From IMG/VR virus record IMGVR_UViG_3300024346_000010: 64,000 nt of DNA; one strand, 5' to 3'. The notes under the pieces are model-generated. The model saw nothing but the letters and a program-made list of their open reading frames with translations, did not search any database and had not been told where the DNA came from. Origin of the DNA: a virus. Both the position numbers and the translations under genes were made by a program. Positions 18,394-49,909 of this stretch are shown here, piece after piece; positions within the stretch are counted from its first letter, which is position 1; every line of letters starts with the position of its first letter.

Positions 18394-20226
18394 ATGGCAG
18401 TTAGTATTAAATCAACAGACCTTGATTTTAATAGAATCAAAGAGCAACTAAAAACACACTTTCTTGCCAGTGATGAATTTGCTGACTACGACTTTGAGGC
18501 TTCTGGTCTATCGAATATCCTTGACGTTCTAGCATATAACACTCACTATAATGGTTTGATTGCAAACTTTGCATTAAATGAGTCATTTCTTACTACAGCC
18601 CAACTGAGAAGTTCCGTTCTTGCTATTTCAGAATCACTGGGTTATATTCCTAGGTCGAAAACTGCAGCATATGCAACGGTAGGTTTATCAGTAAGTATCA
18701 CAAATCCGAGCAGACCAGGAACATTAACATTGCCGGCCGGTTCACAATTTACTTCGACTGTTGAAGATGTATCATATATTTTCCAAACAATCGAAGATCA
18801 TATTGCGGTTGACAATGGATCTGGCTTTTATCAATTTTTAACTTCTAGTGGATCTCCCACGATTTATATCTATGAAGGTACATTTAGAACTAAAACGTTT
18901 ATCGCAGATTCAATATCAACGCCTGTTTATATTATTCCAGACGATACTATCGATACATCAACTGCATCGGTTCAAGTTTATGCGTCTAGAAATGCAGAAC
19001 TTTTTGAAACGTATCTTCCTTTGGCATCCGCCCAGAACGTAACCGCGGATACGCGATATTATACACTAAGAGAAGCCCCGAATGGAAGCTATGAAATCAC
19101 ATTCGGTGACGGTATTACGACAGGTAAAACACCGCAACCAGGTGAAGTTATCCGAGTAACATATCTTTCGACAAGTAATGTTGCAGCAAATGGCGCCAGA
19201 GATTTTATTTCTCAAAGTGAAATAACAGTCGATGACACAGATTATGCTATTGCAGTCACTACACTTTCAAGGGCTGCTGGTGGTTCTGATAAAGAATCAA
19301 TTAAATCTATTAAATCGAACGCACCGATTTCATATGCATCACAAAATAGACTTGTAACTGCAAATGATTATATTGCCCTTATTATAAGAAATTTCGGAAG
19401 TTTTCTTAATGATGTTACTGCATGGGGCGGAGAAGATAATGTTCCAGCAGATTTCGGTAATGTATATGTGTCTTTGAAGTTTATTGAGAATACGACAGAA
19501 GCGGTAAAGCAGGTTGTGAAGGATGGAATCGTATCGAATCTATCAGACAACCTTTCAATTATGTCTATTGATACTAAGTTTTCGGATGCCATAACAACTT
19601 ATATTGAAATAGAAACATTTTTTAACTTTGATCCGTCACTAACAAACGTTACTGCAGGTACAACTGAAGGTACTGTGCAAACGCTTATTAGAGATTATTT
19701 CACGAAAAATCTTAATAAGTTTAATACGACATTTAGACGTTCACAGATTTTAGCAGATGTTGATGACATAAGCGAAGCTATTCTTAACTCTCGAATGAAT
19801 GTTAAAGTTCAGCAAAGAATAACTCCAACTTTGTCACAAAATCTTGCATATTCTCTTCAATATCCTGTTGCACTTGCAGCGCCATTGACAACAACACACA
19901 CTATAACATCAACTCTATTTAACACAAATGGTAAGACATGCACAATCAGAAATAGATTGGGCTCAAACATTCTTGAAGTTGCCACGGCAGAGGGTGAAAT
20001 AGTGGTTACGAATATTGGAACATATAACCCGGTAAGTGGATCGGTTAATATTGTAAGCTTAGCGCCAACATCTATCATCGGGGCAGCGTCATATATTAAA
20101 ATATCTGCAGTTCCCGCTAATCAAAGTACGATAAGACCGTTAAGAAACTATATTCTTACACTTGATACTGAAAAATCATTCGCATCCGCACAAATTGATT
20201 ATCAAGAGATTAGAGTAACGCTGTAA
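18394..20226 (+). CDS. gp6: baseplate wedge protein gp6
   Basis: LDFNRIK, DYDFEASGLSNILDVLAYNTHY, FGDG, QNRLVTANDY, AWGGED. Confidence 0.95.
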   Translation: MAVSIKSTDLDFNRIKEQLKTHFLASDEFADYDFEASGLSNILDVLAYNTHYNGLIANFALNESFLTTAQLRSSVLAISESLGYIPRSKTAAYATVGLSVSITNPSRPGTLTLPAGSQFTSTVEDVSYIFQTIEDHIAVDNGSGFYQFLTSSGSPTIYIYEGTFRTKTFIADSISTPVYIIPDDTIDTSTASVQVYASRNAELFETYLPLASAQNVTADTRYYTLREAPNGSYEITFGDGITTGKTPQPGEVIRVTYLSTSNVAANGARDFISQSEITVDDTDYAIAVTTLSRAAGGSDKESIKSIKSNAPISYASQNRLVTANDYIALIIRNFGSFLNDVTAWGGEDNVPADFGNVYVSLKFIENTTEAVKQVVKDGIVSNLSDNLSIMSIDTKFSDAITTYIEIETFFNFDPSLTNVTAGTTEGTVQTLIRDYFTKNLNKFNTTFRRSQILADVDDISEAILNSRMNVKVQQRITPTLSQNLAYSLQYPVALAAPLTTTHTITSTLFNTNGKTCTIRNRLGSNILEVATAEGEIVVTNIGTYNPVSGSVNIVSLAPTSIIGAASYIKISAVPANQSTIRPLRNYILTLDTEKSFASAQIDYQEIRVTL

Positions 20227-21194
20227 TGTCAAATAGATTTGATTATAACGGAAGACTTCCACTTAATCTTATCATTGATAAGACAAAGGAAGCTTTGCCA
20301 GAACACTTTGCAACTGAGTACCCAGACTTAGTAAAGTTTCTTGATATCTATTATGACTTTATGGAAAAAGATGATGAAGGGTATTCGTACTTCATTCAAG
20401 GATTATATCAAGCAAGGGACTTGAGCACAACACAGCTATCGTCACTTGACAATATTTTTAAAGAGATTGGCAATAACTCACAATCTGCAGACTTCTTTGC
20501 AGATCCAAGATTTATTGCTAAAGTTATTGCATCTTTCTATAAAGCAAAAGGAAGCAAAATCTCAGCTGAAGGATTCTTTAGAGCGTTCTTTGGTGAAGAA
20601 GCTTCTATCGTATATCCAAAAAACAATATGTTTATTGTGAATGATTCTAGATTGGGAACAGATTCTCTTAAATATATACAAGACGATAAGCGATATCAGA
20701 TACATTCTATTCTAATTCAGTCTGGTATTCCTTTAGCCAAATGGAAAGATCTTTTTAAATTGTTTGTCCATCCAGCTGGATGGTATTTGGCTGGCGATGT
20801 TGTTATCGAGGGCATATATAATCTTAGTGCTTCATCGATGCCTATTGCATTACTAGATTCTGCAGCTGGCACAGCAATCTTTGAAGAAACCGCATTCGCA
20901 ACACTTACACAAAATCAGTCAATTACTGGTATTATTATTGATGATAATGATAGCGATTCTCTTGCAGAAAGAGTGTCACTCATACGTCAAATTCAACTAT
21001 TCAATACTCTTACTATAGCAGGAATTGCAGATCAATACAACTCAATTATTGAATTTGCTGACGAAAACTCACCTACATTCGATGAGGATTCTGATGGAAT
21101 CATTCGCGCAGTCGATTTCTCTAATACAATAGAAACAATGGATATGAATAAATTTGATTACGGTAATCCGCTACAATATCAAGATTCCGCGTAA
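20226..21194 (+). CDS. gp7: baseplate wedge protein gp7-like
   Basis: FYKAKGS..FFRAFF, FVHPAGW; position between gp6 and gp8. Confidence 0.7.
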   Translation: MSNRFDYNGRLPLNLIIDKTKEALPEHFATEYPDLVKFLDIYYDFMEKDDEGYSYFIQGLYQARDLSTTQLSSLDNIFKEIGNNSQSADFFADPRFIAKVIASFYKAKGSKISAEGFFRAFFGEEASIVYPKNNMFIVNDSRLGTDSLKYIQDDKRYQIHSILIQSGIPLAKWKDLFKLFVHPAGWYLAGDVVIEGIYNLSASSMPIALLDSAAGTAIFEETAFATLTQNQSITGIIIDDNDSDSLAERVSLIRQIQLFNTLTIAGIADQYNSIIEFADENSPTFDEDSDGIIRAVDFSNTIETMDMNKFDYGNPLQYQDSA

Positions 21195-21201
21195 TATTTG
21201 T

Positions 21202-21209
21202 TATAAATA
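21202..21209 (+). promoter_or_regulatory. T4 late promoter
   Basis: TATAAATA upstream of ATG 21234. Confidence 0.75.
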
Positions 21210-21233
21210 GAATCAACACAACAGGAATTAATT

Positions 21234-21440: not shown

Positions 21441-22784
21441 ATGTCAGCCATCATCACAGATTATTTTAAAAGAGAATTGGTCCAAAACATTTTTGAAGAT
21501 GTTGCCGATTCGGCACAAAACTATTATATCGGTATCGGTAGATCACAGGATTGGGATTCTTCGGATACCCCAACAGTGCCAATCAATTCTCTTAGGGAAG
21601 AACTTCAGTTTAGATTGAATATGCAATCTGTTAAAAGAACCGCTGACGTATCATTTGTTGTTCCTCGCAAAAACTGGTCTTCTGGTTCGATATATTCTGG
21701 GTATAATACTAACCAGGTTGGACAGCCTACGAATTCACATTATGTTATTACTGATAACAACTCTGTTTATATCTGTCTTGAACAAGGTAAAAGTGCAAGC
21801 GGCGCGGGTGTTGCATCTACAGTTAAACCGACTAGTTCTGCATCAACCCCATTTAAAACGGCGGATGGATATGTGTGGAAGTTCCTATACACACTTGCTG
21901 CGGTTGATGCAAACAAATATTTGTCTGCAAACTATATGCCAGTAAAACTACAGGATGCTACAGATTCGGCATCGTCAGCTACAGCTATTGAACAATATTC
22001 TATCCAACAAGCTGCAGTTGATGGTCAAGTTGCTGGTATCACTCTTACTTCTGGCGGATCTGGTTATACTTCTGCACCGACGGTAACAATTATTGGTGAT
22101 GGCGATAGCGCGGAAGCAGTAGCAACGATTCTTGGCGGATCGGTCGTTAAAGTTGAGATGAGGGATTCTGCATCAACAATCTTTAACGGAAGCGGATATA
22201 ATTATGCTAATGTTGTTTTTTCTGGAGGAGCTGGAATAGGTGCAGCGGCAAGAGCAAATCTCTCATATCTAGGTGGATTTGGTTCAGATCCTAGAATTGA
22301 TTTAAAATCAACTGCACTTATGTTTAACGCAAAGCCTTCGGGTGCTGAAAACGAAGATTTCATTATCGGTCAAGATTTTAGACAAGTTGCACTGATGAGA
22401 AATATTAAAAATGCGGCAACAGATTCTGATTATTCTTCAGAGACCGGATCAGCACTTGATTATATGACACTTTCATCTATATCAACTGCGTTCTCTCCAG
22501 ATAGGACAATTCTTGGTGGAACATCTGGAGCAAAGGCGTATGTAGATAGATTCGACTCAGACAAAATCTATTATCATCAAACAGAAGCAACCGGGTTTAT
22601 ACCATTTCAATCATCAGAATCTGTTACCGAAACAGATGGTGCTGGTAGCGGTGTTATCGGAACACCACTCACAGTAGGTGATATAAATAAGTTCAAAGGT
22701 GAGGTATTCTACATTGATAACCGCGCTGCCATCGAAAGGTCGGCTGCTCAGACAGAAGACCTTAAGATTATCATCCAATTATAA
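21441..22784 (+). CDS. gp8: baseplate wedge protein gp8
   Basis: YIGIGR, VVPRKNW, VYICL, DGYVWKFLY, FRQVALMRN, YIDNR..EDLKIIIQL. Confidence 0.9.
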   Translation: MSAIITDYFKRELVQNIFEDVADSAQNYYIGIGRSQDWDSSDTPTVPINSLREELQFRLNMQSVKRTADVSFVVPRKNWSSGSIYSGYNTNQVGQPTNSHYVITDNNSVYICLEQGKSASGAGVASTVKPTSSASTPFKTADGYVWKFLYTLAAVDANKYLSANYMPVKLQDATDSASSATAIEQYSIQQAAVDGQVAGITLTSGGSGYTSAPTVTIIGDGDSAEAVATILGGSVVKVEMRDSASTIFNGSGYNYANVVFSGGAGIGAAARANLSYLGGFGSDPRIDLKSTALMFNAKPSGAENEDFIIGQDFRQVALMRNIKNAATDSDYSSETGSALDYMTLSSISTAFSPDRTILGGTSGAKAYVDRFDSDKIYYHQTEATGFIPFQSSESVTETDGAGSGVIGTPLTVGDINKFKGEVFYIDNRAAIERSAAQTEDLKIIIQL

Positions 22785-22798: not shown

Positions 22799-25700
22799 AT
22801 GGTCGACCAATTAATCAAGAATACATTTAAAAACACATATAGAGATGATTACAGCGACAGCGCTGGTTTTCATCGTGTTCTCTTTAATAACGGCCGTGCA
22901 GTTCAAGCGCGTGAGTTAACACAGCTACAAACTATTATTCAATCTGAGATTACTCGCTTTGGCAATAACATCTTCAAAGAAGGTGCTGCAGTAAATCCAG
23001 GTGGTATTAGTGTTAATCAGATTGAATTTGTTAAACTTAATACAGCATCAAATACATTACCATCAAATACTTCGACTATCATTGGGACTGAGTTCACAGG
23101 TGCGACGTCTGGAATTAAAGCAACGATCGTTGATGTTAAAGTTGCTGCTGGTGCAGATCCAGCAACAATATACGTGAAGTATAACGACGGGCTTTCTAGC
23201 GGCGCTTCAATCAAGTTTTCTCCTGCTGAAGATATTGCAAACGGTTCTGTTACACTTACGGTACAAACCACAAATACAACGTTGAATCCAGCTACTGGTC
23301 GTGGTCTTTCAGGCAACGTTGCAGGTGGGGATTTCTACGCAACAGGACGTTTTGTATACGCACCAAAACAAACATCGATCATTTCAAAATACACAACCCT
23401 GTTAACTGATGATCTTGGTTTTAAGATTGTTGAAGATATTGTTACTGCAAATGATGATGTAACTCTTTATGATAACTCTGGTGCGCTTCCAAACACTTCT
23501 TCGCCTGGCGCTGACAGATACAGAATTCGTCTTACTCTTGATATTAGAAGTAATGTTGATTCGGATGAAAACTTTGTTTACATTGCCAAAATCAGAAATG
23601 GTATTATCGTATCTGATGTTAAAGCAGAATCAGAAGATAATTATAATAAACTTACAGACGTTTTAGCTCTTAGAACAAAAGAAGAGTCAGGCAACTATAT
23701 TGTTAAACCATACACATTATCTTTTGACGACGATTCTGATGCAACTAAACTTGATATTCACGTTTCTCCAGGCACTGTATACGTTAACGGATATAGAGCA
23801 AATAAAGACTTTAACACGAATATCGTCGTAACAAAACCTAGAACAACCCAGACGGTAAACAATGAAGTTGCAGCATTTAGCATTGGCAACTATATCGTCA
23901 TTGATGGGAATAAAGGCCTACCAAATGTAAACGAATTCGAACTTATGAATTTACGTTCAGCTACAGCTCATGGTGGATCTACTATTGGTACAGCAAGAGT
24001 TCGTGCGATTGAAGAGAATGGTAACGGCAACTATCGTCTTTACATTTTCCAATTATCAATGAACTCTGGACAAAACTTCAGAGACGTAAGAAGCATTGGT
24101 ACTTCAACTTCCAACTATTCAAATTTGGTTCTTGAAAACTCTCAGGCAGTTCTTAAAGATGCAAGTAATAGCTCGCTTCTAGTAAGTCTTCCAACATCTA
24201 GACCTTCAGTATTATCCGATATTTCACTTGCAACTCAACGTAGATTTACAACATCAACGAACGGTTCAGGGCAAGCGACACTTACACTTTCAGCCTCAGG
24301 TGAAACATTTGCGAATACAAACGATTGGGTTCTTGCACTAGCAGACAGTGATATTATTTCTGGCGCAACAATTACTGGAGCTGGTACTACAACAGCTTCC
24401 CTCTCAGGACTTCCAGCATCTGAAGCAAATCTTGAAGTTATTACTTATGTTAATAAAGCAGCTGCAACAGTTAGATCAAAAAGCCTTGAAACAGGTGCTG
24501 ATACAATTGCATCATTCGATTCTGATGGCAATGGACTTATCTATGCAAATCTATCAAAAGCTGATATCTATTCCTTTGACGGAATTACATTGTCGGATTC
24601 TTCTGGCAGATCACTTGTAAGTAAGTTTACTATTGATAACGGCCAAAGAGACAACTTCTATGATCTAGGTCGTATTATTTTGAAACCTGGACAATCGCTT
24701 CCAACAGATAACGTTGTTGTTCAATATCAATATTTTGATCACGGTGTTTCAGGCGACTTCTTTGCCGTTAACTCATATACAGGCGAAGTTGACTATGAAG
24801 ATATTCCTTCACACACCCTAGCAGGTGGGACAACTGTTTCTCTTAGAGATGTTCTTGATTTCAGATCAGTTGTTAACTCCTCACAAACATTTGGAGCAGG
24901 AGCAGTTCTTCACGAACTTCCACAAACGAACGATACCATCCAAGCTGACGTTACATACTATCTTGGAACAAGAAATAAAGTTGTTATTACAAATAATAAT
25001 GAAATCAAGTTTATTTCAGGTAAGTCTGCTATTTCACCAAAATATCCAGAAACCCCTGAAAACTCGCTTGAGCTTTATAGAGTTACATTAAACCCATATG
25101 TTCTCTCTCCTTCTGATTTGACCGTTGAAAAGATTGACCATAGACATTATACTATGTCAGATATCGGTCGTCTTGAGGATCGTATTGATAAGCTTGAAGA
25201 ATTAACTTCTCTTAGCTTACTCGAACTCGATACAAGCGCATTGAGTGTATTGGATTCGGCTGGTCTTGACAGAACAAAATCCGGTTTCTTTGTAGATAAC
25301 TTTGCTGATCACACATTCACTGATGTTGCATCATCAGAACACAGAGCTGCTCTTGATCCGGTTAACAAAGCATTAAGACCGACTTCAAGTGAAGATGCTA
25401 TTACTCTTCAATACGACTCCGCGGCCTCAACAAATACGATTCTTAAAGGTGACAACGTATATCTAAACTATACACATAGAACGATATATGACCAATCTTC
25501 CGTAACAGGTACGGAAAACGTAAATCCATTTATTTTAATGGATTGGCTAGGTAACATTACAATGTCACCGTCAAGTGATAGTTGGATCGAAACCCAGTGG
25601 ACCGCAGATAGAATTATTAATGGTGGCACAAGACTTGATACAAGCAGAGCCAACCTTTGGAACTCAGCTTCGTTTAACTGGGGTGGAATTCCTCTTGATC

Positions 25701-27931
25701 AACTTCAAGTTGGTTCCACATCAAGTTCCATTACTTTAGCTTCAAGTACTGTTGCTGGTGGAAATACTTCTTCAACCATACAAAGTGGAAATATTCGAAC
25801 CACGACGATTTTTGCAAATTCTACAACTACTACTACAACCGGATCAAATAGAGTAGTTTCTTCCGAAACCGTGCGTGAAGTTGTTGGGGATAGAGTTATT
25901 GATGTTCTTGTTATTCCATTCATGCGCTCAAGAAAAGTGTATTTTAAAGGCGAAGGATTCAGACCTAATACAAGATTGTTCCCATTCTTTGACGATGTTT
26001 CAGTTGATGATTGGGTAAAATCAGAATCATTTGTAAATATGGCATCTGATCCAGTTGACTTTGGTAATAGTCTAAACGGAACCGTTGGACATCCAGACGG
26101 CGCATCAAATCTTGTTACTGACGGATCTGGAAGAATTGAAGGTTCATTCTTCATTCCATCGACAGCAGGTTTAAGATTTAGAACAGGCACAAGACCGTTT
26201 ACATTATCTGATGTTACATCTGGATTAAGAGCGAACGGAACTTCATTCGGTAAAACGACATTTACTTCAAGAGGTACTATTGAAGTTAGACAAAGAGATA
26301 TTCTTTCAACACGCGTTCTTACAGTTCAAAGTTTTACTAATACGACAACATCAGCCGATCGTCGCATTATTTCTACAGACACAATTGATGTACAGGATCG
26401 TGGAGATCCATTAGCACAGTCTTTCTTTGTTGCAGAACCAACAGGATATTTTGCGACAAAGTTTGATTTCTACTTTAAAACAAAAGCTGCATCAGAAGCA
26501 AATCCAGTATGGATCCAACTTCGCACTATGGAAAATGGCATTCCGACTGGTAATATCCTACCTGGATCAACTAAGTTTGTTTATCCTTCAGAAATTACAG
26601 TTTCTGATGATGCATCGGTTGCGACAACCTTTGAATTTGATGAGCCCGTTTACCTGGAGCCTTACAAAGAATATGCTGTTGTTATGCTTGCAAACACTAC
26701 AGATTACTTAGTGTATATTTCTAGAGTTGGCGACTTTATTCTAGGAACAACCGATGCTAAAGTAACTAGACAGCCATTCTTAGGGTCACTCTTTAAATCA
26801 CAAAACGCATCTACTTGGACTCCATCACAATGGGAAGACCTAACATTTAAAATGTATGGTGCACAGTTTACCGCAACAACAGGTATTGCAAAACTCAACA
26901 ACGTAGCAGTTCCTTCCGAACTACTTCCAGCCGATCCATTTAGTGTCGATTCTGCAGATGCAACAATCACCGTTAATCAAGGATCTCACGGTCTTACGGT
27001 TGGTGATGATGTTGTAATTTCAGGAGCAACTACATTCGGTGGCATTTCTGCAGGAAGTATTAACGGCATTAGAACAATTACGGCTCTTGATGCAAATGGC
27101 TACACATTTGAAGCTGACTCAGCATCAACATCCGCTGATATTGGTGGGGGAAGTGCAGTTCTAGCAAATAAAAACATTCCGATGGATGTTATGATTCCAA
27201 ATATCACGACTCTCTTATTAGATAATACTAATATTTCTGCAACAGGTGAGTTTACAACGGGTCAATCTCTTGCTGGGATAGAAACCGCTTATCAGAAAGA
27301 AAGCGCTGTTGATATTCCGATCAATAGAGAGATTGTATTCTCAACACCAAAGTTGATTGCTAATGCGTCAAATGAAACAAACAATATGGCAGGCGCAAAG
27401 AGCTTAACGCTTAATATTACAATGTCAACGAATAATGACTTTATCTCTCCTGTAATTGATATGCAACGTGCAACTGCTATTGCTATCTCAAACAGAATTG
27501 ACAAGCAATCTGCATCACCTGCTAGTGGATTTAACGTTCCACTTAACTATGTTGCGGAGACAACTGCAACAGGTGGCACACACGCTTCTAAGCATATTAC
27601 AAAAGCTATTACACTCGCCGATGATGCTGTTGGTTTGAAAGTTCTAGTATCAGCAAACAGACCATCGGTTGCAAGCTTTGATGTTTATTACAGAGTGTCA
27701 AACGGCACAACGCTGCTTACGGATACCGACTGGGCGCTAGCTTCAATTGAAAATAATATGCCTTCAGATGAAAATCCAGAAGTATTTAGATCATACGAAT
27801 ACCTTATCGGCGGGCAAGGCGGATCACTTCCAGCATTTAATCAGTTCCAAATCAAGGTTGTGTTTAAGTCAACGAATAGTAGTAAAGTTCCAATTATTCG
27901 TGACCTAAGAGCGATTGCGCTTGGTGTATAA
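22799..27931 (+). CDS. large virion structural protein (VrlC/DUF4815-like)
   Basis: 1710 aa; YRDDY..FHRVLF..GRAVQARELTQLQ, PGADRY, RTKEESGNY, GFFVDNF, DPLAQSF, DLRAIAL. Confidence 0.85.
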   Translation: MVDQLIKNTFKNTYRDDYSDSAGFHRVLFNNGRAVQARELTQLQTIIQSEITRFGNNIFKEGAAVNPGGISVNQIEFVKLNTASNTLPSNTSTIIGTEFTGATSGIKATIVDVKVAAGADPATIYVKYNDGLSSGASIKFSPAEDIANGSVTLTVQTTNTTLNPATGRGLSGNVAGGDFYATGRFVYAPKQTSIISKYTTLLTDDLGFKIVEDIVTANDDVTLYDNSGALPNTSSPGADRYRIRLTLDIRSNVDSDENFVYIAKIRNGIIVSDVKAESEDNYNKLTDVLALRTKEESGNYIVKPYTLSFDDDSDATKLDIHVSPGTVYVNGYRANKDFNTNIVVTKPRTTQTVNNEVAAFSIGNYIVIDGNKGLPNVNEFELMNLRSATAHGGSTIGTARVRAIEENGNGNYRLYIFQLSMNSGQNFRDVRSIGTSTSNYSNLVLENSQAVLKDASNSSLLVSLPTSRPSVLSDISLATQRRFTTSTNGSGQATLTLSASGETFANTNDWVLALADSDIISGATITGAGTTTASLSGLPASEANLEVITYVNKAAATVRSKSLETGADTIASFDSDGNGLIYANLSKADIYSFDGITLSDSSGRSLVSKFTIDNGQRDNFYDLGRIILKPGQSLPTDNVVVQYQYFDHGVSGDFFAVNSYTGEVDYEDIPSHTLAGGTTVSLRDVLDFRSVVNSSQTFGAGAVLHELPQTNDTIQADVTYYLGTRNKVVITNNNEIKFISGKSAISPKYPETPENSLELYRVTLNPYVLSPSDLTVEKIDHRHYTMSDIGRLEDRIDKLEELTSLSLLELDTSALSVLDSAGLDRTKSGFFVDNFADHTFTDVASSEHRAALDPVNKALRPTSSEDAITLQYDSAASTNTILKGDNVYLNYTHRTIYDQSSVTGTENVNPFILMDWLGNITMSPSSDSWIETQWTADRIINGGTRLDTSRANLWNSASFNWGGIPLDQLQVGSTSSSITLASSTVAGGNTSSTIQSGNIRTTTIFANSTTTTTTGSNRVVSSETVREVVGDRVIDVLVIPFMRSRKVYFKGEGFRPNTRLFPFFDDVSVDDWVKSESFVNMASDPVDFGNSLNGTVGHPDGASNLVTDGSGRIEGSFFIPSTAGLRFRTGTRPFTLSDVTSGLRANGTSFGKTTFTSRGTIEVRQRDILSTRVLTVQSFTNTTTSADRRIISTDTIDVQDRGDPLAQSFFVAEPTGYFATKFDFYFKTKAASEANPVWIQLRTMENGIPTGNILPGSTKFVYPSEITVSDDASVATTFEFDEPVYLEPYKEYAVVMLANTTDYLVYISRVGDFILGTTDAKVTRQPFLGSLFKSQNASTWTPSQWEDLTFKMYGAQFTATTGIAKLNNVAVPSELLPADPFSVDSADATITVNQGSHGLTVGDDVVISGATTFGGISAGSINGIRTITALDANGYTFEADSASTSADIGGGSAVLANKNIPMDVMIPNITTLLLDNTNISATGEFTTGQSLAGIETAYQKESAVDIPINREIVFSTPKLIANASNETNNMAGAKSLTLNITMSTNNDFISPVIDMQRATAIAISNRIDKQSASPASGFNVPLNYVAETTATGGTHASKHITKAITLADDAVGLKVLVSANRPSVASFDVYYRVSNGTTLLTDTDWALASIENNMPSDENPEVFRSYEYLIGGQGGSLPAFNQFQIKVVFKSTNSSKVPIIRDLRAIALGV

Positions 27932-28134
27932 TGAGATTAGTTAAAGCAGATAACGGCCCCGGTATGGCAAGAGATTTAAATACTGGGGCTATAATCAATA
28001 TAAATAGAAGTGAACTTGAACAAGCCCGTGAAGCAAAGCGACTGAGAAAAGCTAAAGATCAAGAGTTTGCGCAAATGAAAAATGATATTGATGATATCAA
28101 AAAAATGTTAACTCAGATTGTAGAGAAACTATAA
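27931..28134 (+). CDS. small conserved virion-associated protein
   Basis: RDLNTGAIIN plus C-terminal coiled coil; typical follower of the VrlC-like gene. Confidence 0.7.
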   Translation: MRLVKADNGPGMARDLNTGAIININRSELEQAREAKRLRKAKDQEFAQMKNDIDDIKKMLTQIVEKL

Positions 28135-28700
28135 TGGCAAAAGTAATTGTAAATTTATCAGACACTATGGACAGTTTTGTCACTAAGACAAATTTAATTT
28201 CTACATATGTTGGTGATCTAACGACTCTGAACACAACTCAAGACTCCGATCTTGTCGGGGCAATCAATGAGGTATATGCGCTAGTTGATAATGACCTAGA
28301 TTTTAGAAGTAAGATTAGCGTAACTGATGCGGGTGGAGATGGATCGTTATCCTATAGTTCTGCTACTGGTGTTATTACATATACTGGTCCAAGTGCTGCG
28401 GAAGTAAGAGCGCATATTAGCGTAACAGATGCTGGTGGAGATGGATCACTAAGCTATAACTCAACTTCAGGTGTTATTACATATACTGGACCAAGTGCAG
28501 CTGAAGTAAGAGCACACTTATCTGCAGGGACTGGAATTACATTTTCAAGTGGTGTTATAAGTGTAACTCCAGGAAGCATAAATACAACTGAATTAACCGA
28601 TGATGCCGTATCAAGAGCGAAATTAAAAGACGAAGTAGGTCTAGTGATATACGATAATAGCGGCGTCGCATTAAAAACCCTATACGGAGCAGGAAGTTAA
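28134..28700 (+). CDS. short fibre/whisker-like structural protein
   Basis: DLVGAINE motif, 34-aa tandem repeat, C-terminus LKTLYGAGS. Confidence 0.65.
   Translation: MAKVIVNLSDTMDSFVTKTNLISTYVGDLTTLNTTQDSDLVGAINEVYALVDNDLDFRSKISVTDAGGDGSLSYSSATGVITYTGPSAAEVRAHISVTDAGGDGSLSYNSTSGVITYTGPSAAEVRAHLSAGTGITFSSGVISVTPGSINTTELTDDAVSRAKLKDEVGLVIYDNSGVALKTLYGAGS
28314..28517 (+). repeat. intragenic tandem duplication, 2 x 102 bp
   Basis: ISVTDAGGDGSLSY(S/N)S(A/T)(T/S)GVITYTGPSAAEVRAH twice; units start at 28314 and 28416. Confidence 0.9.
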
Positions 28701-28701
28701 A

Positions 28702-29631
28702 ATGGCAATTAGAACACCTTTAAAATTGGATGGAAGTAATCTTAGGGAGATGACTTCCGGCGAAATCGAGGCAATTCAAACAGAAGCCATTCGCCAATAT
28801 GGCTTAAATCCATATGTTTACTTGTCAGTCGTTGCAAGTGGCGGTAATCTTGGAACTATTAATGATACTAGATTGATTGCAGGCGAGGGAACAACAGATG
28901 TAACAGACTACGATACAGAGGCAGAAACGCCGAACGTTTCTACTACAACTGTAGGATATGCTAGGATTACTCAATCAATTGACACAAGCTTAACTAACTG
29001 GACAAATGCGACACTTTCATATCCGTTATATTATGATGGTGGTGACCTAAGAGAAATGACCGCTGCTGACTTCGGGGATACTTTTATTCTTCCAGCTATC
29101 GATACATTAACTTCCGGCTACACTACTTCTGCACAAGCTGGAACATACCATATTTCAACAAGCTCTTCTGTTGCTGGGTCAACATTGGTTTCCAGCACTC
29201 CAGTATTTGTGGATACAAGAGCAAATGCCGGTGCTTATACTGCATCTGGTATTCCAGAAACTCAAGATCAACCAACGACTATTACGAATTACTATTTGCA
29301 TAGAATCAATTCTGCATCTGAAGGTTCTTATCAACTTCCAGTATGTTATACAAAGTCTGGAACAAATCTTCAACAAGCCTCTGCAGACGTACTACGAAAC
29401 GCACTTAGCACAATGATTAACTACTATGCGGCAGAAGTGACCGGGACTAGAATCAGATACAGGATTAACGGAACTGGTACTAACCGAGGTTCTGCTATGA
29501 CTGATACGAAGCTAAATAGCTCTACGTACCTACAGCGCTTTGTAGATACCGACGACTATAGAACACAAGAAGTTCCGAGTGGCACAGCAACAACAATCTC
29601 AACAAACTACTTAAGAATTTACCAAGTTTAA
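28702..29631 (+). CDS. virion structural protein (Thr/Ser-rich, internally repeated)
   Basis: Repeated LREMT, DTR/DTK and TITNYYL/ISTNYL motifs; within the structural operon. Confidence 0.6.
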   Translation: MAIRTPLKLDGSNLREMTSGEIEAIQTEAIRQYGLNPYVYLSVVASGGNLGTINDTRLIAGEGTTDVTDYDTEAETPNVSTTTVGYARITQSIDTSLTNWTNATLSYPLYYDGGDLREMTAADFGDTFILPAIDTLTSGYTTSAQAGTYHISTSSSVAGSTLVSSTPVFVDTRANAGAYTASGIPETQDQPTTITNYYLHRINSASEGSYQLPVCYTKSGTNLQQASADVLRNALSTMINYYAAEVTGTRIRYRINGTGTNRGSAMTDTKLNSSTYLQRFVDTDDYRTQEVPSGTATTISTNYLRIYQV

Positions 29632-29655
29632 TATAATAAAAGAAAGTGAATTATT

Positions 29656-30225: not shown

Positions 30226-30227
30226 TA

Positions 30228-37527: not shown

Positions 37528-37532
37528 AGAAA

Positions 37533-39006: not shown

Positions 39007-39552
39007 ATGGCAAAGTTAACAGGCTCTCTTAGAACTAAAACATCTATACAGGCGAAGTCTGTTACTCTTGGTACAATTTCTGCCAATGACCTAAAGAATG
39101 CTGATCAGGCTTTCTCTATAAATCTGTCGGCTGATCAGGGAACAGATTTACTTAAACTTCTTACTAATAATAACTTATCTATTCTTGGTGCTGATGGTAT
39201 TAGCACAAGTATAGATGCTGATAATAACGCTTTAACAATAACTCTAGTTCCTGCCAGTACTACTGAGCTCGGGGGCGCACAATTCGATGCTACGTATTTT
39301 ATAGTAGATAGTGACGGGATAGTATCAATAAAACCCGGTGGTATTCAAGCTGGTTTGCAGGATAATGCAGAAGCTATATCTCCGGCTAATGGTGGTACAG
39401 GAATAGTATCATATACTAAGGGCGATATGATCTTTGCTTCGGACTCAGACGAAGTGATTGTATTACCTATAGGCACTGCAGGTCAATCTTTAATGGTATC
39501 AGAAGACGGTATACCTTACTGGTCAAATGTTTATGACGGCGGCGAATTCTAA
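39007..39552 (+). CDS. fibre-like structural protein
   Basis: NGGTG..SYTKGD, LPIGTAGQSL, ends YDGGEF (DGGxF fibre C-terminal motif). Confidence 0.65.
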   Translation: MAKLTGSLRTKTSIQAKSVTLGTISANDLKNADQAFSINLSADQGTDLLKLLTNNNLSILGADGISTSIDADNNALTITLVPASTTELGGAQFDATYFIVDSDGIVSIKPGGIQAGLQDNAEAISPANGGTGIVSYTKGDMIFASDSDEVIVLPIGTAGQSLMVSEDGIPYWSNVYDGGEF

Positions 39553-40396: not shown

Positions 40397-41785
40397 ATGG
40401 CCGTTTTACAAAGACATAAGAATACCATCTACGGACTGGTAACAGACCTAGCCCAAATCACTACAAGTGTTACTAATGAAGCAACTGCTCGCGCAGCTGC
40501 TGACGTCGTATTACAGGGTAACATCGATGCAGAAGCCACCCGCGCAACTGCTGCAGAAGGTGTAAATGCTACTGCAATCACCAATGAAGCAACAGCTCGT
40601 GCGGCTGCCGATACTACACTTCAGTCAAACATCACTGCAGAAGCCACCCGCGCGACTGCGGCAGAAGGCGTAAATGCTGCTGCAATTACCGCTGAAGCTT
40701 CTACCGCACGTGCCGCTGAAGCTGCAAATGCCTCTGCAATTACTGCCGAGACTACTCGTGCAACTGCTGCTGAAGGTGTCAATGCAACAGCAATCTCAAC
40801 AGAAACAGCTGCTCGTATTGCTGGTGATACCGCTGCTCAGTCATATGCTGACGGCATTCTTGCTGCCTTCGAAGCAGGTGACTTCCAGACACTTGAAGAC
40901 TTAGTTGCAGTAATCAACTCTGATTCATCTACAGTTGGTTCGTTCCGTAAAGAGATCGCAGACATCATCGATTCTGCACCAGAAGCTCTTAACACACTCA
41001 ACGAAATTGCTACTTACATCAACGTAAATGGCACTGGCGATGACGTTCTTACAGCTATCACTAACAGCGTAACTGCAGCTAAAGCAGAAATTCGCGGTGA
41101 AGTTACTGCTGCATACGATACGCTTGCTGAAGTTGAAGATGCACTTGATATCATTAACGGTTCTGGTGTAGGTTCTATTGCTAAAGTTGCAGCTGACTTC
41201 GCAGCAGCTGATACAACACTGCAGTCCAACATTACTGCAGAAGCAACAGCTCGTGCTGCCGCAGACGTTACATTGCAGTCCAACATCGGTGCAGAAGCAA
41301 CTACTCGTGCTGCCGGCGACGTTACATTGCAGGGCAATATCGATGCAGAAGCAACAGCGCGTGCTGCTGCAGATACTACACTTCAGTCTAACATTACTGC
41401 AGAAGCTACAGCTCGTACGAATGCTGATGAAACACTCACAACTGGCTTAGGTAACCTTTCCGGTGTTACTGATGCTGGTACTGCTCGTACAAACCTTGCT
41501 GTTTACAGTAAAACAGAAATGGATGCGGCGCTGCTCCTTGCCGGTGCAAGATTCATCACTGAGATCCTTACGGTCACAGCCGATGCAATCACGTTGACAC
41601 ATGCTCCTAAAGATGGTGTATTGTTCAACTTCGGTACAGTACGTCACACAGATGCTAACTTTGTATCTTACGACATTCCTGCAACAGTTGGTGGATCTGC
41701 CACTGTATACAACCTTGCCCCGAACGCTTCTGGCGACTTCGACGGTAAAGCAGTTGTTGTACAGTACGCATACACACCTGCATAA
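40397..41785 (+). CDS. Ala/Thr-rich coiled-coil fibre protein
   Basis: 18-aa repeats EATARAAADxxLQxNIxA/EATRATAAEGVNAxAIT; SAPEALNTLNEIA motif; C-terminal beta domain. Confidence 0.75.
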   Translation: MAVLQRHKNTIYGLVTDLAQITTSVTNEATARAAADVVLQGNIDAEATRATAAEGVNATAITNEATARAAADTTLQSNITAEATRATAAEGVNAAAITAEASTARAAEAANASAITAETTRATAAEGVNATAISTETAARIAGDTAAQSYADGILAAFEAGDFQTLEDLVAVINSDSSTVGSFRKEIADIIDSAPEALNTLNEIATYINVNGTGDDVLTAITNSVTAAKAEIRGEVTAAYDTLAEVEDALDIINGSGVGSIAKVAADFAAADTTLQSNITAEATARAAADVTLQSNIGAEATTRAAGDVTLQGNIDAEATARAAADTTLQSNITAEATARTNADETLTTGLGNLSGVTDAGTARTNLAVYSKTEMDAALLLAGARFITEILTVTADAITLTHAPKDGVLFNFGTVRHTDANFVSYDIPATVGGSATVYNLAPNASGDFDGKAVVVQYAYTPA

Positions 41786-43673: not shown

Positions 43674-44429
43674 ATGGCAAACCCAACTACCAGACAAGGA
43701 CTTATTGATTATTGTTTAAGACGACTAGGTGAGCCTGTTATAGAAATCAACGTCGACCCTGACCAATTAGAGGATAGGGTCGACGAAGCAATTCAATATT
43801 GGCAAGAGTTTCACGCCGACGCGACATATAGAACATATGTTGCACACCTCGTAGGTGACAGCGATGTATCAAGAGAATACATTGAAACAACCGACGATGT
43901 TCTATTTGTATCAAAATTATTCCGAATTTCTTCTTCATTTAACAATTCAATGAATTTCTTTGATATTAAATATCAAATGATGCTAAACGATATCGCTGAT
44001 ATGCAAAACTTCGCCGGTGATCTTGCATATTACGACCAATTAAATCAATATCTTTCTATGCTTGATATGAAATTAAACGGTGAGCCACAGACTACATATT
44101 CGCGTAGTATGAATCGCCTCTATATTCACGGAGATTTTTCCGATAAAGACATTCAAGCCGGCTCATATATAATTTATGAAGCATATAAAACTGTAGATCC
44201 AGGAACATTTGGTAAAGTTTATAACGACATGTGGCTTAAAGAATATACCACAGAGCTTATTAAACAACAATGGGGATCTAATCTGAGTAAATTTGAAGGC
44301 ATGCAAATGCCTGGAGGTGTCACTCTTAATGGTAGACAATTGTATGATGATGCCACTGCCCAAATAGAAAGACTCAGGGAAAAGATTCGCACTGACTTTG
44401 AAATGCCGACGGATTTCTTTGTAGGATAA
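43674..44429 (+). CDS. gp13: neck protein gp13
   Basis: LIDYCLRRLGEPVIEINVD, KQQWGSNLSKF..MPGGVTLNG; CATAAATA late promoter at 43646. Confidence 0.95.
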   Translation: MANPTTRQGLIDYCLRRLGEPVIEINVDPDQLEDRVDEAIQYWQEFHADATYRTYVAHLVGDSDVSREYIETTDDVLFVSKLFRISSSFNNSMNFFDIKYQMMLNDIADMQNFAGDLAYYDQLNQYLSMLDMKLNGEPQTTYSRSMNRLYIHGDFSDKDIQAGSYIIYEAYKTVDPGTFGKVYNDMWLKEYTTELIKQQWGSNLSKFEGMQMPGGVTLNGRQLYDDATAQIERLREKIRTDFEMPTDFFVG

Positions 44430-44433
44430 TATA

Positions 44434-45315
44434 ATGGCAACTAGTGTATATTTCAGTCAAAGAGTCAAATCCGAACAAAATTTATATGAAGATATAATTA
44501 TTGAATCTTTAAAAATTTACGGCCAAGACGTATATTACCTTCCCAGAACTATCGTCAATGAAGATAAAATTCTCGGTGAAGATGTTCCATCAAAATTTAG
44601 TGCGGCATACCAAATTGAAATGTATGTTGAAAACATTGAAGGCTTTGATGGTGAAGGTGATATTTTTGCCAAGTTCGGCGTTGAAATACGAGATACTGCT
44701 ACATTCGTTGTATCACGAAGACGGTGGGAAAGTACTGTAGCTCGAATTGACAATATCTTAGAAACATCTAGACCAAACGAGGGAGATATCATTTATCTTC
44801 CTCTATCAAATTCAATGTTTCAAATTATGGCAGTCGAGCATGAATCCCCATTTTACCAGTTAAGCAACCTACCTACATATAAGCTACGTTGTGAACTCTT
44901 CGAGTATTCTGGCGAAGATTTTGACACAGCCGTTGCGGCGATTGACGATATTGAGCGTAGGTATGCTTACAAGTATCTTACTACCCTTGATAGTGCATCT
45001 GCAGGTTGGATTGTAGGAGAAACTGTTAATCAAACTCTATCAACCGGTACGGTTATATCAGGAGAAGTTGCTGGATTCTCTGCTTCAGACAATGTCTTAC
45101 AACTTATTCATGTCGGTGCAGATGATGGCAATTATCATAGCTTTATAATAGGTGAGCAGATTACCAGTACTAGGGGATCTACTGCGTTGGTTACTGCAGT
45201 AGCTGAGGATAACCAGTTATCCGAAACTGAAGATAATGACTTTTTTGATACCACTGAAACAGATCTTGAATTCTTAGATTTCAGTGAAACTAATCCGTTT
45301 GGAGATCCACAGTAA
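44434..45315 (+). CDS. gp14: neck protein gp14
   Basis: EQNLYEDIIIESLKIYGQDVYYLPR, PNEGDIIY, FYQL, DFSETNPFG. Confidence 0.95.
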   Translation: MATSVYFSQRVKSEQNLYEDIIIESLKIYGQDVYYLPRTIVNEDKILGEDVPSKFSAAYQIEMYVENIEGFDGEGDIFAKFGVEIRDTATFVVSRRRWESTVARIDNILETSRPNEGDIIYLPLSNSMFQIMAVEHESPFYQLSNLPTYKLRCELFEYSGEDFDTAVAAIDDIERRYAYKYLTTLDSASAGWIVGETVNQTLSTGTVISGEVAGFSASDNVLQLIHVGADDGNYHSFIIGEQITSTRGSTALVTAVAEDNQLSETEDNDFFDTTETDLEFLDFSETNPFGDPQ

Positions 45316-46112
45316 TGTTAGGTAATCATTTTTATCACGAACGCATTAGAAAAAGCGTTGCCATGTTTGGCTCTCTTTTTAATAACATTTACGTTGTTCG
45401 TACAGATTCTTCAAATAAGGTTATAAGCCAGGCAAGAGTTCCTTTGTCATATGCTCCTGCTACAAGCTTTTTAGACAGAATAAGAGAAAATCCTGACTTA
45501 GAACAAGATACTAAAGTTGCCATTAAACTTCCTCGTATGTCATTTGAGATTATTTCATATCAGTATGATTCACAGAGGCAGCTTCAAAAAACAAATAATA
45601 TTAACCGAACTTCTGGTGACTCTACTACGCGCAATAAGTTTTATGCGTCTACTCCTTATATAATTGGATTTCAGCTTAACGTCTATACTAAAACCCAAGA
45701 TGATGCTTTACAAATCATTGAACAAATTCTGCCATACTTTGGTCCTCAGTATACGTTAACTATTAAACCATTCGCAGATTTTAGTGATATTAAAGAAGAT
45801 GTTCCTATCACGCTTAACGGTATTTCTTATACTGATGCCTACGAAGGTGCTTTAGATAGTAGACGTATTATTCAGTATACATTAGACTTCCAAATGAATG
45901 CGAACTTCTATGGAGCAGTTCAAGAAGCAAGTATTATTAGGAAACCTATTGTTGATATATATTCTGGTAGAACTGAAATAGATTCCGATGGTGCATTTGA
46001 TCTTTATAGCCCATCAGTAAGAATTGAAGTAAATCCAAACCCTCTTAATGCAAGTCCAGATAGCGACTACGGGTTTACTACTACAATTTATAGTTATGAG
46101 GATAGTGCATAA
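45315..46112 (+). CDS. gp15: tail sheath stabilizer/terminator gp15
   Basis: FGSLFNNI, VPLSYAP, LPRMSFE, QIIEQILPYF. Confidence 0.95.
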   Translation: MLGNHFYHERIRKSVAMFGSLFNNIYVVRTDSSNKVISQARVPLSYAPATSFLDRIRENPDLEQDTKVAIKLPRMSFEIISYQYDSQRQLQKTNNINRTSGDSTTRNKFYASTPYIIGFQLNVYTKTQDDALQIIEQILPYFGPQYTLTIKPFADFSDIKEDVPITLNGISYTDAYEGALDSRRIIQYTLDFQMNANFYGAVQEASIIRKPIVDIYSGRTEIDSDGAFDLYSPSVRIEVNPNPLNASPDSDYGFTTTIYSYEDSA

Positions 46113-48103: not shown

Positions 48104-48111
48104 TATAAATA
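48104..48111 (+). promoter_or_regulatory. T4 late promoter
   Basis: TATAAATA upstream of gp18. Confidence 0.8.
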
Positions 48112-48175
48112 CACATAGTATTTGAAAATAAACGTATTATGACAAGCTTATAATTTAACTCAAAGGAAAAGAGTC

Positions 48176-49909
48176 ATGGCAGTATCAGAATCTCCAGCGA
48201 TTACCGTTAAAGAGATCGATCTTACCGGCGTTGTCCCAAATGTCGGATCCACTACTGGTGCTTTTGTAGGTAATTTCAACTGGGGTCCAGTTGATAGTGT
48301 TACATTAGTATCGGATGAGGCAGGATTGGTATCGGTCTTCGGTAGTCCAGATAAAACAAATTCAATTGATTTTCACTCAGCAGCATACTTCTTACGTTAT
48401 GCAAGCTCTCTCTATATTGTACGAGAAGCAACACAAGGTTCAGGCGAAAGCTTAAATGGTGGTGATTCCGACGCAACATTCACAGCTAGAGTAAAAAATC
48501 AGGTTTCATTCGATTTCCAAGAAGATGCTTTGGATTCAGATGGACACACATTCATCGCTAAATATCCAGGAGCTCTTGGCAATTCATTAAAAGTTTCATT
48601 CTTAGGCGCAGTTGATAGCGCTGATGATGTTGCGTTTACTGGTTGGACGTACGAAGATAACTTTGACGCGGCTCCAACAACATCCGCGTATGCTGCAGCC
48701 AGAAATGCTTCTGGTGATGAAATGCACGTAGTAGTTATTGATCAAGACGGTGCTTTCACGGGCGCACGTGGAACTGTTCTAGAAACATTCCCATTCGTTT
48801 CTCTTGCGGCAGATGCAAAAGCTGCTGATGGAACTTCAAACTACATTAAAGACGTAATCAATTCAAGATCTAACTACGTGTGGTTAGCTGGTTTTGGTAC
48901 AGCAAGTAAGTTTGATGCCGATGCAGGTACAAATGCTACTTCGGGTAAAGACTATAAATTGGCTTCTCCGGCGGCTGTAGAAATTTCGTTTGTTAATGGC
49001 TCAAATTCTGCGGCACTAACAACATCAGAATATGCAACAGGCTTTGATAGATTTGAAGACGCTGATAATATTCAGGTAGATTTCTTAATTGCGCCTGGCA
49101 TGGTAAGCCGAACAGATCAAACGGCAGTAGTTAATGATCTTATTGCAATTGCTCAAGGCACTCGTAAAGACTGTGTTGTTGTTGCATCCCCTGCTCGTTC
49201 TGATGTTGTTACATCAAATGATGTTAATAACGATATTATCACAACAGCTAAAACGTTTACATACTCTTCTTACTTATTCATGGATAACAACTATCTTAAA
49301 GTATATGATAAGTATAACGATCAATACATCAAAATTCCTGCTGCTTCTTCAACTGCCGGTATTATGGCGGCATCTGACAATGATCAAGCTGCGTGGTATT
49401 CACCAGCCGGTCAGAGACGTGGTGTTTATTTAGGTGTAACCGGTCTAGAGTACTCACCAAATAAATCCGAGCGCGATCTGTTATATCGTAATAGCATTAA
49501 CCCAATTGCTAACCTTCCTGGTCAAGGTATCCTACTTTACGGTGATAAAACACACATGGCTCGTCCAAGTGCATTTGATCGTATCAACGTACGTAGACTC
49601 TTCCTCGTCCTTGAAAGAGCAATTGCTCTTGCCGCACGTAACGTGATGTTCGAATTCAACGATGAGTTTACTCGCGCAGAATTCACGAACATTGTTGAGC
49701 CATTCCTTAGAGAAATCCAAGGTAGACGTGGTATCACTGACTTCCGTGTTGTATGTGACGAAACAAATAACACAGCAGCAGTCATTGATAGAAACGAATT
49801 CATCGCAAGCATCTTCATCAAACCAGCACGTTCAATTAACTTCGTAACGCTTAACTTCGTTGCAGTTAGAACCGGTGTTGAATTTGAAGAAGTTGTTGGC
49901 TCAGTATAA
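48176..49909 (+). CDS. gp18: tail sheath protein gp18
   Basis: SPAITVKEIDLT, FNWGP, WYSPAG, FDRINVRRLF, IKPARSINF. Confidence 0.97.
   Translation: MAVSESPAITVKEIDLTGVVPNVGSTTGAFVGNFNWGPVDSVTLVSDEAGLVSVFGSPDKTNSIDFHSAAYFLRYASSLYIVREATQGSGESLNGGDSDATFTARVKNQVSFDFQEDALDSDGHTFIAKYPGALGNSLKVSFLGAVDSADDVAFTGWTYEDNFDAAPTTSAYAAARNASGDEMHVVVIDQDGAFTGARGTVLETFPFVSLAADAKAADGTSNYIKDVINSRSNYVWLAGFGTASKFDADAGTNATSGKDYKLASPAAVEISFVNGSNSAALTTSEYATGFDRFEDADNIQVDFLIAPGMVSRTDQTAVVNDLIAIAQGTRKDCVVVASPARSDVVTSNDVNNDIITTAKTFTYSSYLFMDNNYLKVYDKYNDQYIKIPAASSTAGIMAASDNDQAAWYSPAGQRRGVYLGVTGLEYSPNKSERDLLYRNSINPIANLPGQGILLYGDKTHMARPSAFDRINVRRLFLVLERAIALAARNVMFEFNDEFTRAEFTNIVEPFLREIQGRRGITDFRVVCDETNNTAAVIDRNEFIASIFIKPARSINFVTLNFVAVRTGVEFEEVVGSV

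Follow-up and report, generated by a model that had tools for sequence, protein, structure and literature searches.

An apparently clade-specific D-S-[D/A] motif in tail-side virion proteins of marine T4-like phages, with a possible role in serine modification

Does a short aspartate-serine tripeptide that recurs in the virion proteins of an uncultured phage serve as a signal, and if so, what reads it? The question is raised by a 64-kb stretch (64,000 nucleotides) of IMG/VR record IMGVR_UViG_3300024346_000010, called the window here, which contains the structural module of a marine T4-like myovirus that has not been cultured. A sequence-only reading of the window had noticed that Asp-Ser (DS) dipeptides in the outer virion proteins are often followed by Ala or Asp (DS[AD]), and had proposed that these serines are modified by the products of an adjacent cluster of glycosyltransferase (GT) and radical SAM genes. 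We confirmed the DS[AD] enrichment and much extended it, and the pattern D-S-[D/A], less often D-S-S, appears to be a selected short linear motif on exposed tail-side virion serines of one phage clade. The sheath protein of the window shares 49.6% identity with its counterpart in phage C48C1 and about 45% with its counterparts in the Pelagibacter phages HTVC008M and Mosig. The cultured phages most closely related to this one infect SAR11 and OM43. A nucleotide search of the window against cultured phages gave zero matches. We found no cultured representative of the motif-rich clade; among cultured phages, the best gp8 shares 36% identity.

The DS[AD] excess in the window

The virion set of 25 proteins (10,133 amino acids) was fixed from the PHROG annotation ahead of counting, whereas the further division into outer and inner proteins was made once the data had been seen. 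DS[AD] was found 32 times in this set compared to 10.0 +/- 3.1 in per-protein composition-preserving shuffles, none of 2000 of which reached 32, and the DS dipeptide alone was at expectation (58 vs 60.5). The 52 remaining open reading frames (ORFs) carry 2 DS[AD] against 6.5 expected. This corresponds to 2 of 23 DS sites, in agreement with the rarity in non-virion proteins (about 2 of about 20) given by the sequence-only reading, and its estimate that Ala and Asp make up about 15% of third positions by composition compares with 16.7% measured in the virion set. Among 76,000 patterns of the form XY[Z1Z2], DS[AD] ranked first (Poisson p 2.5e-8), and in a family-wise test 1 of 1000 shuffled sets yielded any pattern equally extreme. 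The best pattern in the outer set of the window had a p of 1e-11, compared to 2e-7 to 3e-7 in comparable non-repetitive outgroup sets. The runner-up, TL[NQ], comes from an ordinary fibre repeat of 18 residues: two fibres (40397-41785 and 42712-43650) consist of the repeat 'EATARAAAD(T/V)TLQ(S/G)NI(T/D)A', which accounts for the TL[NQ] enrichment. The first of them (40397..41785, plus strand) has a single DSA ('DII-DSA-PEALNTLNEI'), and the DS[AD] sites of the window fall outside repeats.

The excess depends on residue order. DSD occurs 16 times compared to once each for DDS and SDD, and DSA 15 times compared to 2 DAS, 2 SDA, 4 ASD, 5 ADS and 9 SAD. Local composition as a cause was ruled out by a residue-permutation control. 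A DNA-level cause such as a nucleotide motif or the avoidance of restriction sites or GATC was also rejected: the codons at the sites are mixed, with TCN and AGY for serine and GAT and GAC for aspartate, and GATC is not avoided (278 vs about 221 expected), and therefore the signal sits at the protein level. No longer common motif emerged beyond an enrichment of Gly at +3 and of Asp, about threefold, at -3.

Based on PHROG and Pfam, the genes of the window encode gp48/54-type, gp5, gp25, gp6, gp7-like wedge, gp8 and VrlC-like giant proteins, fibres, gp13, gp14, gp15, terminase, gp18, gp19, portal, protease, scaffold and capsid, and all of the earlier per-protein hand counts were reproduced. The motif-bearing genes lie on the plus strand. 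In the gp7-like small baseplate wedge (20226..21194, 322 amino acids, PHROG and Pfam Baseplate_wedge), 4 of 7 DS are DS[AD], and the protein ends in DSA (codons 21183-21191). The gp8 baseplate wedge (21441..22784, 447 amino acids; phrog_438, 2.4e-79; Pfam Phage-Gp8) has 6 of 7, at residues 23, 175, 222, 242, 328 and 372, with a DSS at 39. The VrlC-like giant baseplate protein (22799..27931, 1710 amino acids; phrog_358, DUF4815) has 9 of 11, and both DS of a fibre-related protein of 181 amino acids (39007..39552) are DSD. A short fibre-type protein of 188 amino acids (28134..28700) contains '...TTQ-DSD-LVGAINEV', the window's one copy of a unit that is repeated in the fibres of relatives (up to 16 tandem 'AINEL-DSD-IGxRSSLTT'). 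Neck and sheath-terminator proteins (43674..46112, PHROGs) have 1 of 1 in gp13, 1 of 1 in gp14 and 3 of 7 in gp15 (45315-46112), which, as had been stated for it and the gp7-like protein, ends in DSA before the stop (codons 46101-46109). The tail sheath gp18 (48176..49909) has 3 of 4, at residues 97, 120 and 147 (codons 48464-48472, 48533-48541 and 48614-48622), all within a non-conserved insertion.

The claimed absence from gp5, gp6, gp19 and the tape measure also held on recount. There are no DS[AD] in the inner-baseplate proteins gp5, gp25 and gp6 (15545..20226, plus strand), with 0 of 2 DS in gp5 (15545-17914) and 0 of 1 in gp6 (18394-20226). The tape measure (4678-6900, minus strand) has 0 of 3, the tube protein gp19 (49930-50457) has no DS, and the major capsid protein (54289-55605) has no DS[AD]. 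The portal (50524-52104) has 1 of 3.

Clade restriction, specificity and placement

We compared the window with 80 IMG/VR contigs carrying a gp8 of 50-95% identity. In the gp7-like, gp8 and VrlC proteins of relatives below 70% identity, DSD is the top of all tripeptides (518 vs 61 expected, 8.5x) and DSA is enriched 3.8x (240 vs 63 expected), whereas the remaining DSx tripeptides stand at 0.2-0.8x, except for DSS at 1.4x and the rare DSC. The VrlC-like relatives alone carry 316 DS[AD] against 76 expected. In contrast, DS[AD] is depleted in the relatives of gp5 (1 vs 11.2) and gp6 (8 vs 25.0), and this split between outer and inner proteins recurs across whole contigs. Within the clade, the motif has spread over gp7-like, gp8, VrlC-like, fibre, neck and sheath proteins, and in fibres of relatives DS[AD] makes up 25 of 33, 14 of 17 and 21 of 37 DS, compared to 1-2 expected.

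The motif-rich clade comprises about 97 of 150 gp8 representatives (50% identity clusters), with about 3.3 DS[AD] per gp8 against about 0.5 expected. The 43 basal representatives, including those of Mosig, HTVC008M and Syn9, have a mean of about 0.5, and a small subclade nested within the rich clade, which includes C48C1, has none; the motif seems to have been lost there from gp8 and VrlC. A basal uncultured lineage has 26 DS[AD] across 21 loci compared to 34.4 expected, whereas the other loci of the same scan have 396 against 78.1. No excess is seen in the homologues from Syn9, HTVC008M and Mosig (HTVC008M, 10 vs 9.4 expected), and outgroup gp8 proteins carry different residues at the aligned homologous positions. 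These alignments suggest that the motif is specific to the clade and not to the fold, and that the motif-rich phages are probably one clade in essence, with a single origin.

In the non-outer proteins of the clade, a polar residue after DS is found 51 times against 149 expected (about 0.34), compared to 73 vs 106 (about 0.69) in outgroups; these are small numbers from related genomes, namely the non-outer ORFs of the window and of G001, G002, G003 and G005. Hydrophobic residues after DS are not depleted in the non-outer proteins of the clade, and early-gene regions of G002 are not depleted either. The pattern is suggestive only, and may reflect avoidance of the motif in inner virion and island proteins.

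The motif is narrow. In the gp7-like, gp8 and VrlC proteins of the relatives, DT[AD], ES[AD], NS[AD], DGD and DAD are not enriched, and DTA (1.1x) and DTD (0.6x) stand far below their serine counterparts. In the outer proteins of the clade, DSD occurs 113 times against 12.9 expected, compared to 1 vs 12.1 for DSI, 8 vs 12.4 for DSL, 10 vs 12.7 for DSV and 11 vs 18.1 for DST, and Glu at position 3 is depleted (2 vs 6.9). A generic helix N-cap or beta-turn preference was therefore rejected as the overall cause, given the exclusion of Thr, Glu and Asn and the mixed structural contexts.

Exposure of the sites, another earlier claim, is supported by modelling. In an AlphaFold2 model of gp8 (mean predicted local distance difference test, pLDDT, 86), all 7 DS sites are predicted in loops or turns, with varied contexts: one comes after a helix, one comes before a helix, one forms a two-residue hairpin turn and the others lie in loops. 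At gp8 sites 175, 242 and 372, Asp and Ser are kept in 43-58 of 59 relatives compared to 15-35 for flanking columns, and the position after this constant pair changes between D, A, S and N. This is the reverse of what a DxD metal site would predict. Ranked over 8000 tripeptides by the number of distinct alignment columns, the leaders are DSA, DSS and DSD in gp8 and DSD and DSA in gp7-like proteins. After merging adjacent columns, gp8 has 14 site regions, about four of them near-universal and about six gained or lost within the clade.

Free C-termini are a further place where the sites are probably exposed. The C-terminus of the gp7-like protein is DSA in 26 of 52 distinct relatives, and the others end in DSN or DSV, or have DSD or DSA within the last 10 residues. 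The gp15 of G005 also ends in DSA, and that of G001 has a DSD 11 residues before its end. In gp18, residues 89-276 presumably take the place of outer domains I and II of T4 gp18, and all three sheath sites would sit in this replacement. The flanking residues 6-88 and 277-575 align to residues 5-87 and 344-655 of the T4-type sheath 9ev2 (656 amino acids), the top PDB match, which is listed beside T4 gp18 (3j2m) among the matches.

Canonical Ca2+-binding loops had been put forward as the alternative. Two sites of the window are textbook DxDxDG or EF-hand-like loops, gp7-like 288 'DEDSDGIIRAVD' and VrlC 574 'DSDGNG', and to this extent the alternative stands. However, a DxDxDG-like loop ([DN]-x-[DN]-x-[DNS]-G) overlaps only 2 of 31 sites of the window and 23 of 478 distinct contexts, and as a general cause such loops were rejected, since they cover about 5% of sites and leave about 95% without a match. 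The x positions of EF-hand-like loops are free, whereas the Ser of the phage motif is conserved. Five sites of the window are DSDG and beta-turn-like.

In fibres, the motif stands at fixed places of the repeats, as in 'AINEL-DSD-IG', 'YYTRVRF-DSD-FG' and 'LI-DSA-YV'. A 1308-residue fibre of G002 (95702-99628; L100, 15702-19628) consists of 16 units of about 25 residues, '...(A/V)(I/V)NE(L/V)-DSD-(I/V)GxRSSLTT...', and has 25 DS[AD] against 1.8 expected; a profile search of the PDB with its repeat gave nothing significant. Other DS idioms were seen outside the motif-rich lineages. The HTVC008M fibres (L111, 29145-39905) have an idiom of their own, with 2 to 6 DSF per fibre (16 in four fibres), and in the C48C1 connector (L089, 15242-19948) DS[D/A/E/K] opens each coiled-coil repeat. 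The VrlC homologue of G012, a motif-poor basal lineage (L159), has 21 DS, none of them followed by A or D. A literature search for the motif on virion proteins found no paper describing it.

Known systems and candidate enzymes

The general O-glycosylation sequon of Bacteroidota, to which the sequence-only reading had likened the motif, is D-(S/T)-(A/I/L/V/M/T). Both consist of three residues with Asp first and a hydroxy residue second, and DSA fits both. Nevertheless, the analogy fails: the Bacteroidota sequon takes Thr at position 2 and A, I, L, V, M or T at position 3, whereas the phage motif refuses Thr, is depleted in I, L, V and T at position 3 and prefers Asp there, a residue outside that sequon. 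The Bacteroidota system also acts on exported proteins, whereas phage virion proteins of the T4 type are assembled in the cytoplasm. In chlorella virus PBCV-1, A64R helps to build the N-linked glycans on the capsid protein of a eukaryotic virus. This virus-encoded, cytoplasmic, retaining GT-A enzyme acts on the major capsid protein (PDB 2P6W, 2P72, 2P73), and its match to the window is at the level of fold only.

A second likeness is to SdgB and SdgA, which O-GlcNAcylate the serine-aspartate repeat adhesins of staphylococci. These enzymes are of the GT-B type (GT4), whereas the glycosyltransferases here are GT-A (GT8-like in the window, GT25 in relatives). The likeness lies in the Asp-flanked acceptor serine, DSD being the top-enriched tripeptide here, and in a cytoplasmic glycosyltransferase that, in their case, acts on a surface-exposed protein. 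Their acceptor is a long tandem SD repeat, while the phage sites are isolated tripeptides in loops of folded proteins, and the phage motif, unlike theirs, accepts Ala at position 3. SdgB is described as glycosylating Ser in a D-S-D context (PMC3794999, PMC8561734).

Mycobacteriophage Che8 and its relatives resemble the present phages in having phage-encoded glycosyltransferases; the window holds two predicted GT-A enzymes. The Che8-type capsid is reported to be glycosylated, and the study by Freeman et al. is said to have found the tail tube glycosylated too, whereas here the capsid and tube are without the motif and the tail periphery carries it. The Che8-type systems differ in host, phage family and enzymes; as a point of likeness, some of the present motifs sit at C-termini. 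That mycobacteriophage virions are glycosylated by phage-encoded glycosyltransferases is attributed to Freeman et al. 2023 (Cell Host Microbe 31:1216, as cited in PMC11256854).

The window carries an island between VrlC and the neck genes (22799-45315) with fibres, GT8-type glycosyltransferases and radical SAM cassettes. It matches in position and content the host recognition cluster (HRC) of pelagimyophages, for which modification of the host O-chain was proposed (Zaragoza-Solas et al. 2020, PMC7029224). That paper makes no mention of a virion-protein motif, and HRC islands with GT8 occur also in motif-poor pelagiphages such as Mosig, whereas the motif is clade-specific. The first half of the island (28702..33001, plus strand), whose proteins have no DS[AD], encodes a conserved Thr/Ser-rich protein (28702-29631), a GT-A glycosyltransferase (30228-30866), a SAM-methyltransferase-like protein (30829-31467), a GT8-like glycosyltransferase (31464-32333) and two proteins without assignment (29656-30225 and 32321-33001). 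None of these first-half proteins had Pfam or PHROG hits, and profile searches of island proteins against the PDB gave nothing significant. Alignments of island proteins revealed invariant DxD motifs and a GxGxG motif. The GT8-like protein has an invariant D114-x-D116 and no Pfam hit at E<=0.01, while 11-25% of the members of its Atlas neighbours carry PF01501. Its model (pLDDT 84) matches LARGE1, XXYLT1 and LgtC (E 1e-5 to 1e-6, template modelling (TM) score about 0.45) and PBCV-1 A64R (E about 1e-5, TM 0.41-0.57, 13% identity). The block is syntenic across G001, G002, G003 and G005. The product of 28702-29631 (309 amino acids, no family hit, no DS) is always encoded by the first gene past the VrlC-proximal fibre in relatives, has a Mosig homologue of 46% identity and may be structural.

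The radical SAM set follows (32970..38621, plus strand), with two SPASM-only ORFs, two radical-SAM-core ORFs and three N-terminal-twitch enzymes according to Pfam (35327-36490, 36465-37466 and 37533-38621, plus strand). The first and third of these exceed the cut-off of 170 bits of NCBIfam NF033640 (309.8 and 184.5 bits), while the second, with 144.4 bits, lies under it. The three (35327-38621) are tandem paralogues with an N-terminal auxiliary-cluster (twitch/SPASM) domain, and no precursor peptide is evident.

The earlier proposal was right in placing glycosyltransferases, two GT-A/GT8-like enzymes, next to the fibre genes. The adjacent cluster as writer is not supported, since its occurrence does not follow that of the motif. 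Radical SAM clusters occur not only in the window but also in G001, G002, G003, G007, G008 and G009. However, Mosig has homologues of the whole island block (25-46% identity) and three radical SAM genes, yet no motif enrichment, and motif-poor contigs G011 and G014 have nine and three radical SAM genes. G015 (108 kb, about 65% complete) is motif-rich, with DS[AD] at 14 of 20 DS against 2.1 expected, and lacks both radical SAM genes and any homologue of the two window glycosyltransferases. In motif-rich G003, no N-twitch enzyme is above the cut-off, and in G002 about 40 kb separate the radical SAM set from the fibres. Vibrio phage K566, considered as an independent multi-radical-SAM lineage, has five homologues and merely 10 DS[AD] against 5.0 expected, and was rejected as such. 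Co-occurrence therefore fails for all island genes tried as trackers (radical SAM, the N-twitch family, the GT8-like and the second glycosyltransferase). A Maf/MptE-like enzyme (PF01973) was also rejected as writer, with no significant match in 11 genomes, and Pfam scans of the tested window ORFs, which were not all of the ORFs, detected no GT-B family.

The enzyme set that best tracks the motif is a cassette of a methyltransferase and two or three tandem GT25 genes, which makes it a candidate writer; its ORFs lie, for example, at L144 605-3231. It is found in motif-rich G002, G003, G007, G009 and G015, and is absent from the complete motif-poor genomes of Mosig, HTVC008M, Syn9 and C48C1 and from the motif-poor fragments G011-G014. 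No GT25 homologues were found in cultured phage records. If gene order follows that of G002, the cassette would be expected roughly 30 kb upstream of the start of the window.

Weighing the readings

As the best single reading we tentatively favour, as a possibility rather than a probability, that the motif serves as acceptor or recognition site for a covalent modification of serine that takes place in the infected cell. The preferred chemistry would be O-glycosylation by a phage-encoded glycosyltransferase, with methyltransferases tailoring the added sugar; the island of the window, with its two GT-A, methyltransferase-like and radical SAM proteins, may build or extend the glycan and would not be the specific determinant. 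The existence of an enzyme that reads the motif, the sugar nature of the modification and the identity of the writer are all inferred. A fuller version, which we consider rather doubtful, is a clade-wide three-residue sequon D-S-[D/A/S] through which a cytoplasmic phage enzyme, for which the GT25 cassette is the candidate, would coat the tail periphery and not the capsid with glycans, while late inner virion proteins would avoid the motif.

Several points weigh against modification. The fixed spots of the motif in the structural repeats of fibres, and the C48C1 fibres, which have DS[D/A/E/K] at the starts of coiled-coil repeats with no enrichment in gp8 or VrlC, mean that some of the signal may have a purely structural origin. 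The capsid, the largest surface, is without the motif, which would be odd for a general glycan shield, and the published reading of these islands is host O-chain modification (PMC7029224). GT25 was not found within the 64-kb window, and of 9 motif-rich pieces measuring 33 kb or more only 5 yielded it, the rest being fragments. In addition, all co-occurrence, including that of GT25 with the motif, is confounded by descent, because the motif-rich phages form one clade.

Among the rivals, non-enzymatic surface chemistry is somewhat unlikely. Here Asp-Ser-(Asp/Ala) patches would bind Ca2+ or Mg2+ or order water on the tail exterior, with no writer, and the cations would stabilise loops or bridge contacts with host polysaccharide. 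Seawater is rich in divalent cations, the motif is acidic, with the Asp at -3 and Gly at +3 noted above, the sites lie in well-ordered, high-pLDDT loops, and the two EF-hand-like loops of the window fit. Nevertheless, the rarity of such loops speaks against it, as does DSA, which, with its one carboxylate, equals DSD in frequency in the window. Conservation of the middle Ser also exceeds that of the third residue, DGD, DAD and DTD are not enriched, and Syn9, HTVC008M and Mosig, marine relatives with the same folds, are without the motif. A lineage-specific structural idiom is unlikely as well: an ancestral turn or helix start of the form D-S-small residue, spread by amplification of fibre repeats and recombination with no common reader. 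It would account for the fixed repeat-unit positions in fibres, the C48C1 coiled-coil segment starts, the five DSDG turns and the single inferred origin, and the 14 site regions of gp8 are about as many as in permuted controls, the difference lying in their occupancy. However, the specificity is narrower than structural propensities, with no Thr, few Glu and no Asn or Glu at position 1, and the seven gp8 sites share no secondary-structure context. A free C-terminal DSA cannot be a turn or helix cap, yet half of the gp7-like proteins end in it, and non-homologous proteins acquired the motif in one clade.

Direct action of the adjacent radical SAM/SPASM enzymes, with or without the glycosyltransferases, on the serines of DS[AD] (formylglycine formation, epimerisation or cross-linking) is very unlikely. 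Five cores lie inside the late fibre operon and clusters recur in several motif-rich relatives, and one protein maturase of the SPASM/twitch type, the anaerobic sulfatase maturase, oxidises serine, although its profile gave only a weak hit here. On the other side stand motif-rich G015 without any such gene, motif-poor G011, G014 and Mosig with them, the low count of K566, and the G003 and G002 arrangements described above. That the pattern is an artefact of chance or composition selected post hoc is extremely improbable: it was picked by eye out of many, and DSD and DSA singly fail Bonferroni correction over 8000 tripeptides in the window, but a family-wise result of about 1 in 1000, replication in about 100 lineages (50% identity clusters), absence from outgroups and the permutation control all argue otherwise.

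If the serines are indeed modified, the tail fibres and baseplates of very abundant ocean phages would be chemically decorated, and host recognition, protease resistance and particle decay could be affected. The HRC glycosyltransferases would then gain a job as virion decorators other than the remodelling of the host O-chain. Under the fuller version, no sequon-directed system for virion modification would have preceded it in T4-like phages. The DS[D/A] count in gp8, VrlC and fibres serves as a simple sequence-only marker that sorts uncultured phages by this trait, and the motif tells precisely which peptides to search for in viral metaproteomes. If the motif is cation-binding or structural instead, it would still be a sharp signature that defines the clade and is convergent across unrelated virion proteins.

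Sugar genes were also seen elsewhere. Between the fibres and VrlC of Mosig (L110, Mosig 50-100 kb, about 4700-23400), an island encodes a sugar aminotransferase, a carbamoyltransferase, an epimerase, an acetyltransferase, methyltransferases, three MoaA-like radical SAM proteins, Asp/Arg hydroxylase-domain proteins and a GT8 homologue. The set resembles a toolkit for an uncommon sugar, although Mosig virion proteins have no DS[AD] excess. In the window, downstream of uvsW and amid replication and recombination genes, 61778-62530 encodes a NAD-dependent sugar epimerase/dehydratase of 250 amino acids (PF01370, 1.9e-26). No homologue turned up at the syntenic place in relative G001, and this epimerase is a possible candidate for a nucleotide-sugar supply gene.

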